Source: Eledone cirrhosa (Eukaryota). Taken from it: DNA of 64,000 nt. Position 1 is the stretch's first letter. Every line of letters begins with the position of its first letter. A model generated the notes under the pieces. That model saw nothing but the letters and a program-made list of their open reading frames with translations. It ran no database searches and had not been told where the DNA came from. The stretch is taken from the NCBI GenBank assembly GCA_964016885.1, contig OZ024740.1, positions 386,942,001-387,006,000 of the forward strand, read 5' to 3'. Below, in pieces: positions 1-3,390 of the stretch. Both the position numbers and the translations under genes were made by a program.

Positions 1-59
1 GGACAGCATGTGCAGTGTCGGTGCCACGTAAGCAGAAAAACATCCCAAAAGTGCAATTT

Positions 60-1555
60 GGGAGACTGCAGCAGTCCGTCTTGCCAGGAAAGAACGTTGT
101 AATGCTGAACGTGAGTGCAAACTGCATAAATCAGTTATCAATAGGAAGAAGTGAAATAAATCATCCAACCATCTCAAGCAGGTGACAAAAAAAGCAGTGT
201 GTGAATTTGAACAGCGCATAGCAACCAGCCCTGACAGTAAGGTGTTCTGGAAGTATGTTCACTCAAAGCAGAGGCCTCACTCTCCAGTTGGTCCTCTTCG
301 CAATCCCCACACAAGCCAGATTACTGACGACCCCAAGGAATGCGCAGAACTCATTGCTGAATGCTATGCATGCATTTTCACTGTTGAAGACCAAAGTGTA
401 TCATCTCCACCACCTCTGACATCAGATTCTATTACAACTATGGAATTTACACCTGCAATGCTGCGACGTCACCTTAAAAATAAACGCAACCATGCCTCTC
501 CTGGTCTTGATGGTGTTACATACCTGCTTCTCAAACGCGGTGGGTATATCCTTCTGCACCAGCTATCACGCTTCTTCCAATTTTGTCTGAACACGGTGCT
601 ACTCCGGAGCAGTGGAAAACTGCCAGTGTCATTCCTCTGTTCAAAAAGGGTGACCGCATGTCACCTGTCAACTATCGTCTAGTTAGTCTTACTAGCTGCA
701 TTGCCAAACTGATGGAATCCTGTGTCAGAGAAACACTTTGGAACTTCTGGAACTCTCACAGTCTTAGCCACTCTTCGCAATTTGGATTTATCTCTAACTC
801 CAGCTGCTGTGATCAACTTATTGAGTTTCTTGAAGACATCACCCAGATCACTAATGGCGGCTCATGGGTGGATGTTGTTTGCCTTGACTTTGCTAAAGCT
901 TTCAATGCTGTGTCACACAAAAGACTTATGGTAAAACTCTCTGCAATGGGTTTGAAGGATGATCTTTTTAACTGGTTGAAGTCCTTCATTTTCAGTCGAA
1001 GAGCGGTAGTCATGGTTCTAGGACAGCATTCCTCACCATATAAGATGTCATCCCTGTGGTATGTACCACAGGGATCTGTTCTTGGTCCCCTTTTGTTTGT
1101 GGCATAGATGCCAACTTAAAGAATGCCACTAAAATATGCAGATGACATCAAGCTGTACCTTGAGATAAAAAGGACAGATCCTGAACACTATAGATTTTTC
1201 CTGCAATCAGACCTGGACACAATGCAATAATGGATCACGGACTGGCAATTCAAGTTGGCTGTGTACCCATGACTTTCGGGAACATTTTTTCACGCTCAGA
1301 GTTGCTGAAGCATGGAACAAACTTCCTGCATCAGTTATTAGCTGTCAAGACACTGCATCCTTTAAAACCTCCATGCTTCTTGAAATTCGCCAACACTACA
1401 CCTGATGTCCCCTCTCCATACACACGCACACATGTATTTCATGACTCGTACACTGTTTATTTTCCTGACATTTGAATATTATTCTATGTACTATACATTC
1501 ACCTTTGATGAATTGTAGTGCACCTGAGCACTATACACAATAATTTCATTATCAT
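60..1555 (+). mobile_element. Degraded CR1-like LINE (RT region plus 3' end, internal deletion near 1262)
   Basis: Frameshifted ORFs 182-682 and 583-1107 carry PLFKKGDR..NYRLVSLTS, DFAKAF, QGSVLGPLLF, and YADD follows at about 1135-1146. The 3' end with (ATT/ATC)n tail matches a second copy at about 27220-27520. Confidence 0.85.
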
Positions 1556-1870
1556 CATCATCATCGTTTAACGTCCATCTTCCACGCTAGCATGGGTTAG
1601 ACGGGAGTTGTGCCACTTGAGGTAAGGTTGGTCGGGTGACCGTGTCTCGCTCATATAGGACTATCTGGCAGGTTTTCTACAGTTGGATGCCCTTCCTAAC
1701 ACCAACCACGTAACAGTGTGGAACTGGGAACTTTTTACCATGTTACCTACACGGCCACATTACAGCGTGGACTGCGAGTAGTTTTTTTTTTTTTTTTTTT
1801 TTTGTGACACCTACACGATCTCAATCTCATTATCTTATTTATTTGGACTGGATGTTGTGGTACCAACTTT
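1553..1870 (-). mobile_element. RTE-LINE 3' UTR/tail fragment (or SINE sharing that tail)
   Basis: Reverse complement matches the 3' UTR and (ATG)n tail of the RTE at about 39570-39991. Similar pieces lie at about 2500-2640, 2690-2880, 25176-25350 and 33150-33420. Confidence 0.75.
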
Positions 1871-2050
1871 ACAGAGTAGAGAGTGTGTGTTTATCAAGTT
1901 ACAGGGAATACCACTAGCATATCTCTATATTATATTTGAAGAGCCCAGGATTCTTTTTCCTTTGAGCTCATGAATTACAGGGACTAACACGAGTTTCTGA
2001 CTCTGTTACTTCATTTTGTATATATATGTATATGTGTATATATATATATC

Positions 2051-2495
2051 ATAAACGGAAAAAGTGAAACAAAATTTCATTTCCCACTCTTAGTACTGCT
2101 GTTACTTAAATATAAGTATGTACACGTACATACATATATGTATACAGACGTACAGTAGTATGTATATATATATACATACATGCACACATATATATATGTA
2201 CGTATGGATTCACCGAACATTTATTATAATGCTCGATGTGTTTGTAAACAAACGTCCCGTATTAAGCCGTAGTGTCCAGCAACCATCGTTGCTCATTTGT
2301 TCAACACTGACAAAGGAATGCTGTACTAGTTTCAAGCTTATTAGCTATCGTCAGCAACGTATACCTTCCTGCCAGATTACCTTATGCATATAAACGGCTG
2401 AGTAGCCCAATTTGCATATCGAGTGGGTTAATCGGCCGGGTGCACCGAAAACGATAAACAGAAAAAATGAAACGAAATTTCATTTCCCACTCTTA
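2051..2495 (-). mobile_element. 403-bp unit with 42-bp terminal direct repeat, embedded in (TA)n, carrying a hammerhead motif (retrozyme/Penelope-like)
   Basis: Direct repeats at 2051-2092 and 2454-2495 (ataaacRgaaaaaRtgaaacRaaatttcatttcccactctta), TA runs on both sides, and a hammerhead core at 2318-2360. Confidence 0.65.
2318..2360 (-). ncRNA. Minimal type I hammerhead ribozyme motif
   Basis: The minus strand reads ACGUUG-CUGACGA-U-AGCU-AAUA-AGCU-U-GAAA-C-UA-G-UA/CAGCAU. This gives the CUGANGA and GAAA cores, stem II, a palindromic stem III (ACUAGU), a GUA triplet and stem I (GUUG/CAGC). Confidence 0.65.
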
Positions 2496-2884
2496 TATAT
2501 ATCATCATCATTTAACGTCCATCTTCCATGCTAGCATGGGTTAGACGGTTTTGTTCCATTTGATGCGGGAATGGTCGTACGGAAGTGTCTCTGGCAGGTT
2601 TTTTTTACCGTGTCTTCTACACGACCACCTGACTGTTTTGTCATCGAACATATAGTGTTTTTTCGTTTCTATATTATACATATATATTCATCATTTTACG
2701 TCCGCTTTTCCCTGCTTGCAAAGGTGGGATGGGAACTGATTCTGGCTTGATTTCTACAGCTGGATGCCCTTCCTAATACCAACCTCATTTACAGTGAGTG
2801 CTGTGTGCTTTTTTTACCATGGCGCCTACACGTCCACTTTACAGTGTGGGCTGGGTGCTTTTTTCTTGTGACACCTCCACATCC

Positions 2885-3010
2885 CATTTTTACAGCTGAG
2901 TAAACTGGAGCAATGCTCAAGGAAACAACACATCACCTGGTCTGAGAATTGAACTCACAACCTTTCGATTGCAAGGCCAATGCTCTAACCACTAAGCCAT
3001 GTGCCTCCAT
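2885..3010 (-). mobile_element. tRNA-derived SINE with CORE-like domain (partial)
   Basis: Reverse complement gives a tRNA-like head (ggcttagtggttagagc...gagttcaattc) plus a CORE-like segment. A longer copy is at 60666-60975. Confidence 0.65.
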
Positions 3011-3233: not shown

Positions 3234-3390
3234 GCCAATGAAAATACTGACTGGTTGTCTTGCTGTTATTGTTATTGCTATCAATCTTTTCTTTGTGGTA
3301 ATCTATATGAAGACTCTTCCAGCACACTGGGCAGTTTATTTATTTGTCATCCTTGGTACTGTATTATATTTGTTGTTTGTTATATATTTG
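3234..3390 (+). CDS. SLC11A2: NRAMP/DMT1-family metal transporter, exon encoding TM11-TM12
   Basis: Acceptor ttttgtttag and donor gtaagt. PMKILTGCLAVIVIAINLFFVVIYMKTLPAHWAVYLFVILGTVLYLLFVIYL resembles the SLC11 C-terminal helices (INMYFV..YL.FV.YL). The symbol is family-level only. Confidence 0.85.

Follow-up and report, generated by a model that had tools for sequence, protein, structure and literature searches.

A predicted type I hammerhead ribozyme in a decayed member of a ~420-bp non-coding tandem family of Eledone cirrhosa, likely inserted by a borrowed Penelope-type enzyme

The element described here occupies positions 2051..2495, minus strand in RNA sense, of a 64,000-nucleotide window of the Eledone cirrhosa genome (contig OZ024740.1). 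A preliminary description of this DNA had placed the element antisense in an NRAMP intron, and the surrounding exons bear this out: six Pfam Nramp exons lie on the plus strand upstream of the window, and a downstream exon of the host gene lies at 3234..3390 (+), where the frame 3235-3393 matches NRAMP2, albeit weakly (E = 0.0064). Since the Nramp exons are on the plus strand and the hammerhead is on the minus strand, the ribozyme strand is antisense to the host gene. Other repeats share the neighborhood. Broken LINE-type reverse transcriptase (RT) sequence was read by eye at 1-1260 (+), a tRNA-like SINE head is present at 2942-2999 (-; Rfam tRNA, 28.1 bits), and a repeat that starts with (CAT)n occurs in two copies, 1553-1830 and 2503-2880, the second of which adjoins the element.

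The insertion consists of one unit plus 42 bp of the preceding unit (2454..2495). The reported terminal redundancy was recovered as a 42-nt direct repeat (2051-2092 and 2454-2495) with 93% identity and a spacing of 403, although it is not a fixed feature: the length of the overlap varies among copies and reflects a variable 5' truncation point, which in the window copy is 2495 (family position 379). TA flanks had been described on both sides; a degenerate (TA)n target run does lie on the left (2017..2050), whereas the run on the right is only 7 nt long (2496-2502). The 403-bp monomer likewise holds for this copy but not for the family to which it belongs (family A), whose unit is ~420 bp. The window copy is shorter because it carries a 17-bp deletion of family positions 78-94 (junction at 2376..2377), with which one arm of the predicted outermost helix is lost; it otherwise differs from the majority unit by 10 substitutions. 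As judged from its letters, it is a decayed member of a ~420-bp non-coding tandem family.

Read from its 3' side, the copy begins at a fixed end, E2 (2051; family position 420), a presumptive RT start beside the degenerate (TA)n. Between E2 and a second fixed end, E1 (2107-2110; family positions 361-364), lies a "tail" of the type found in Penelope-like elements (PLEs) (2051..2110), with a predicted terminal hairpin at about 2062-2083 that is common to family B, a sister family described below. Next comes a TA-rich predicted long hairpin (2121..2207), which is kept in family B even though its letters have changed, followed by the hammerhead core (2318..2360) within a predicted extended helix I (2307..2375). 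Farther upstream, at 2410..2417, is the octamer ATGCAAAT, which families A and B carry at matching positions, 110-130 nt 5' of the predicted cut, and which is intact in 131/159 A units and 137/174 B units. This octamer may resemble the snRNA-type promoters of newt satellite 2 and is a candidate promoter element.

The hammerhead had been reported on the minus strand at 2360-2318, and a type I descriptor does match there, on that strand only; 0/3000 dinucleotide shuffles of the element match. All on the minus strand, its parts are the 5' strand of stem I (2360-2355), CUGACGA (2354-2348), stem II with its loop (2347-2334), GAAA (2333-2330), the palindrome ACUAGU (2330-2325), and A17 (2324), with a predicted cut at 2324/2323 after GUA. 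An Rfam scan of positions 1500-3000 found no hammerhead at E ≤ 10. Low-complexity miRNA and snoRNA matches in the same scan were rejected as composition effects, the spurious miRNA matches arising from the TA-rich predicted hairpin at 2121..2207. When 111 bases of locus L006 were used, Rfam HH9 aligned over 1-77/77, with 15.4 bits against a gathering score of 52. The isolated hammerhead fold was uninformative (z = -0.7).

Stem covariation, which the preliminary description had proposed as a check, was observed. Among 11 lineage representatives, which span the family A subfamilies and two other families, 9/12 pairs change on both sides, and 91.7% of cells pair, a value reached by 0/500 shuffles and compared with 18 to 45% in slid controls; the representatives were hand-picked and the rows are related, so this result does not amount to a probability. 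The core is conserved at 99.2% over 1299 cells, a figure biased upward by the many loci chosen by their core.

This ribozyme had been called minimal. The minimal hammerheads of PLEs have a helix I of 4-5 bp, a helix II of 7-8 bp, an extra base between positions 9 and 10.1, and a G10.1-C11.1 pair (PMC4209133, which sets out the canonical and minimal geometries). In contrast, helix lengths here are 6/4/2 bp, and helix I is predicted to extend distally, helix II in family A having 4 bp; there is no extra base between 9 and 10.1, a U.U mismatch stands at 10.1-11.1, and the alignment to Rfam HH9 is full length, although far below the gathering score. The geometry read from these letters is therefore canonical type I rather than minimal, and self-cleavage is predicted for the family hammerhead.

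Both mismatches noted earlier, U.U at 10.1-11.1 and C.A in stem I, are present in the window copy, but only the latter is damage. The U.U mismatch is carried by 115/119 family A insertions and recurs in family C (below) and in one local coding PLE family, whereas family B has G-C; moreover, the axolotl ribozyme HHR_Amex2 has the identical mismatch and cleaves, better as a dimer (PMC7229834). The C.A mismatch at 2319 is specific to the window copy, in which a single substitution breaks stem I pair 1.5, the pairing G being present in 106/118 insertions. The suspicion that this copy is dead thus stands in part: it is probably impaired or inactive and otherwise ordinary, with C.A as decay and U.U as the family state.

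Family A is large. A genome-wide homologue search returned 2,033 candidates, and among the 40 scored, the best copies were 86-96% identical. Exact matches to a 34-nt ribozyme core number 5,653, and those to a 26-nt 3' segment number 18,773 (control, 0 for each); this gradient fits 5' truncation, although the two patterns differ in length. The majority unit, built from 57 monomers, is 420 bp with a GC content of 37.6%, and identity across subfamilies ranges from about 80% to 100%. Tandem copies, which the preliminary description had proposed to look for, range from dimers to arrays of 17-18 or more units, and variable partial repeats are found in place of any LTR-type organization. Portions of the unit are also represented in contigs of four sequencing runs of unknown kind (from organisms A, B, and C), with a likeness of under 90 to 99% in runs X4 and X6 (organisms B and C). 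Because two other organisms thus yield contigs that match it in part, family A is not confined to this species.

Two further families, of which B is the sister of family A, were found in the flanks of the examined loci, which were best hits or first places on contig C1 rather than a random sample. Family B has a 466-bp unit collinear with that of family A, ~99% identical copies, and 4,893 exact core matches; it was seen at L144, L182:994-1925, L231:410-9669, and L232-L233 and is very young. It shares with family A the predicted fold, ends, target, and octamer, and the A and B majority units fold as circles of similar layout (z = -9.4 and -11.6; 40 shuffles each). Unlike family A, it is younger, has G10.1-C11.1, a GUU triplet, and a tail of ~70 nt, and gives a clearer A>G signal (see below). 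Family C has a 310-bp tandem unit that ends at (TA)n (L166:1570-2165; L060:298-388), and its type I hammerhead has U.U at 10.1-11.1, a CGCG loop 3, and GUA. The same (TA)n tracts hold clusters of several ribozyme-bearing families; one more hammerhead-like motif, whose helix II is very long, adjoins A and B copies at L144:3760-3900.

The ends of the insertions are highly structured. In family A, RNA-sense 3' ends cluster at E1 and E2, ~57 nt apart, and 5' ends are scattered. Overlapping duplicate loci and insertions that reached the edge of a locus were excluded from these counts; an earlier segment-level count (33/37) held BLAST artifacts and was replaced by an insertion-level count. TA runs adjoin 131/176 A ends at E1 or E2 and 100/104 B ends. 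The 135 A insertions comprise 65 head-to-head inverted, 69 single-armed, and 1 complex insertion. E1 was paired with E2 in 47/50 inverted A insertions with both ends classed (P = 4e-11), the remaining 3 pairing E2 with E2, and in the other 15/65 one end lies at neither site. Family B behaves similarly (38/41 E1-E2 and 3 like-with-like, with 3 more having an end elsewhere). We infer that each target strand has one RT start site. Few 5' ends fall at or close to the predicted cut, at a distance of 5 nt or less (A, 1/199, with 5.2 expected; B, 1/108, with 2.5 expected). Since 5' ends are rarely at the cut site, the linear self-cleaved monomer is not the template.

The preliminary description had read one monomer plus a short overlap as the product of copying slightly more than once around a circular RNA, but a 5'-truncated copy of an uncleaved dimer looks identical. 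The element could be a non-autonomous PLE passenger whose template is an uncleaved linear multimer transcribed from tandem arrays; template switching or unequal crossing-over would let the arrays regrow, and the hammerhead would cut rarely or serve another step. We consider this unlikely, albeit well short of negligible. A multimer would give read-through of the cut site and sharing between arms just as readily, the two arms might be copied from one and the same set of units on a linear RNA, and the subfamily haplotype, mostly common to all units of one insertion, is allowed by circle and multimer alike. Higher-order periodicity in A arrays (L169, L004, and L290) and B arrays (L232, L237, and L248) shows DNA-level expansion or multimer templates, and one insertion (L010:900-2180) changes partway from an old subfamily haplotype to a young one, a chimera that suggests a template switch between RNAs. 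Uncleaved RNA was also the main substrate of PAc, and ribozyme mutants still inserted (PMC11167929).

The fixed A>G changes provide an internal marker for telling a circle from a multimer. In octopus, repeats are reported to undergo heavy A-to-I editing (PMC5625713). Edits on a multimer should give an excess of A>G changes in single units. An initial test of concordance, based on "diagnostic" variants, gave noisy results and was superseded by a strict test, which counted rare variants (present in ≤3 insertions) fixed in all units of the same arm, with ≥2 units per arm. Rarity thresholds of 1, 2, 3, and 5 were tried, family A positions 264-361 were masked for variant calls, and 50 family B insertions with same-arm cover and 68 family A insertions were included.

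In family B, the 19 fixed-in-all rare variants include 11 A>G and 1 T>C on the ribozyme strand (P = 0.006, binomial test), or 8 A>G and 1 T>C when arrays of over 8 units are omitted, whereas the 120 single-unit variants include 9 A>G and 17 T>C (P = 1e-6 versus the fixed class, Fisher's test). In family A, the fixed class has 4 A>G and 0 T>C of 10 (P = 0.125, not significant), 2 and 0 of 7 without long arrays, and 1 and 0 at the private-only threshold; the single-unit class has no excess (25 A>G versus 24 T>C), and a ratio of 9 to 1 emerges only when arm-to-arm sharing, which a linear template can also give, is counted. Since the strict test in family A reaches only 4 versus 0, the case for a circle in this family rests largely on its homology with family B, a point in favor of the multimer.

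Individual insertions illustrate the pattern. Two-armed family B insertions reach 20 and 23 or more units, each insertion having its own unit length and A>G changes common to every unit; in L231, the 20 units on the two arms are nearly identical, and all carry the same three rare A>G changes. Long arrays of this perfection might also stem from recent expansion at the DNA level or from smoothing during assembly. The short B insertions L234, L243, and L247 have a rare variant in all units and other changes private to single units, which, together with the A>G bias of the fixed class and its absence from single units, argues against a multimer. An A>G skew could alternatively arise from transcription-coupled mutation at source loci, although such a skew is usually much weaker. 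A>G changes in every unit rather than in single units fit one edited monomer copied around repeatedly.

Coding PLEs with RT and GIY-YIG domains are abundant in this genome, and 5/7 local PLE proteins examined have a Cx4CxxC linker, by which we read them as Neptune-like following PMC8557442. Four local coding PLE families also end at two points beside (TA)n. One Neptune-like family (L092, L091, L099, L100, and L104) combines long open frames of 844-938 aa with a pair of 3' ends separated by about 70 nt and, at about 6150-6330 of L092, a hammerhead-like motif read by eye in the 3' region with U3/A8 in place of C3/G8; it is a candidate partner enzyme for the retrozyme. The repeat could instead be the pseudo-LTR (pLTR) of a coding PLE whose body lies outside the sampled loci, given that target, tail, and inverted structure are the same as in PLEs and that about 135 of thousands of insertions were examined. 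We regard this as very improbable. As the preliminary description had proposed, the unit is not a simple pLTR: in 0/134 loci does the same-strand DNA up to 1.5 kb upstream show homology to any of seven PLE proteins from this genome, and what lies upstream of a unit is another unit, in rows of up to 17-18 or more. Moreover, 0/50 GIY-YIG loci (from 150 scored of 10,595 candidates) carry the unit as their own 3' end, and the six clusters into which BLAST of their downstream DNA grouped them include no homologue of the unit, with a pyrimidine-rich likeness of ends seen by eye only. A DNA minisatellite that spread without an RNA step and merely resembles a hammerhead by chance would suit the long higher-order arrays and the subthreshold Rfam score but is largely refuted, and hardly credible, against fixed 3' and scattered 5' ends, a strand-specific A>G bias, covarying stems, and 0/3000 matching shuffles.

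Our preferred reading (probability roughly 0.68) is that the copy in the window is a degraded member of a tandem family with ~420-bp units, no encoded protein, and a predicted type I hammerhead. A borrowed Penelope-type enzyme likely inserted it into (TA)n, and likely did so by reading around a circular RNA. A tandem source array would be transcribed, neighboring hammerheads would cut out monomers, and these would be ligated into circles, with editing of some of their adenosines to inosine. After a Neptune-like PLE protein had nicked (TA)n, RT would begin internally on the RNA, from E1 for one target strand and from E2 for the opposite one; every cDNA would pass the ligated cut site and stop at a variable point. 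The window copy would be a single-arm product begun at E2 and stopped after about 1.1 units, and some long arrays were likely expanded later at the DNA level. In a more specific form, to which we give even odds, the insertions would be fossils of twin-primed rolling-circle reverse transcription, in which a PLE dimer would use two fixed sites on a single ADAR-edited circle to prime the two strands of a broken (TA)n, so that edits become heritable in every unit and feed subfamily evolution. Ways in which animal retrozymes might be copied, and the use of circular templates by PLE enzymes, are proposals in the literature. Families A and B give start sites to the base, strand pairing, and candidate local enzymes, and their structure makes the proposed PLE/circle mechanism directly testable.

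With PLEs, these families share an inverted 5'-truncated partner copy, an AT-rich or microsatellite target, and a hammerhead upstream of the 3' ends. In vitro, a PLE used two internal RT starts and extended both target strands (PMC11167929), and inverted PLE insertions have the tail at one end (PMC8557442); in Neptune-like and Poseidon PLEs the tail lies between two RT starts, often at one end only, as here. Family A thus has the tail, inverted partner copy, and microsatellite target of PLEs but, unlike an autonomous PLE, no RT and GIY-YIG open reading frame (ORF) between repeats (0/134 loci), and its tail is ~57 nt rather than 30-40 nt.

The likeness to animal non-LTR retrozymes is closer. 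Two 3' ends, paired inverted arms (E1/E2), (TA)n targeting, and all-unit A>G changes are not part of the retrozyme descriptions in the consulted portions of PMC7229834 and 10.64898/2026.07.22.740005. No cephalopod is named in the main text of PMC7229834, whose supplements, like those of PMC4209133 and 10.64898/2026.07.22.740005, may list molluscan or cephalopod families, and a literature search, in which subscription papers were thinly covered, found no report of paired ends, fixed A>G marks, or an octopus retrozyme. Mobilization by PLEs and RNA editing have already been suggested for animal retrozymes in these two sources. No pLTR homologue was found for family A, compared with 21 PLE matches for Xenopus families, and 8/9 retrozyme dimers did not cleave in vitro (10.64898/2026.07.22.740005). 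The features held in common with PMC7229834 and 10.64898/2026.07.22.740005 are non-coding tandem units that measure a few hundred bp (420 bp here; class range, 150-450 bp), a GC content of 38% (37.6% here, with no LTR-type organization), a type I hammerhead in each unit, here with a conserved core and covarying stems, a short palindromic helix III, thousands of copies, and a self-paired predicted circle; even the U.U at the base of helix II is that of axolotl HHR_Amex2 (PMC7229834). The preliminary assignment to a retrozyme-type element, a non-coding tandem type I hammerhead repeat of 420-bp units with no PLE ORF, is upheld, and, as known from DNA sequence, family A is on every testable feature a new member of the animal non-LTR retrozymes.
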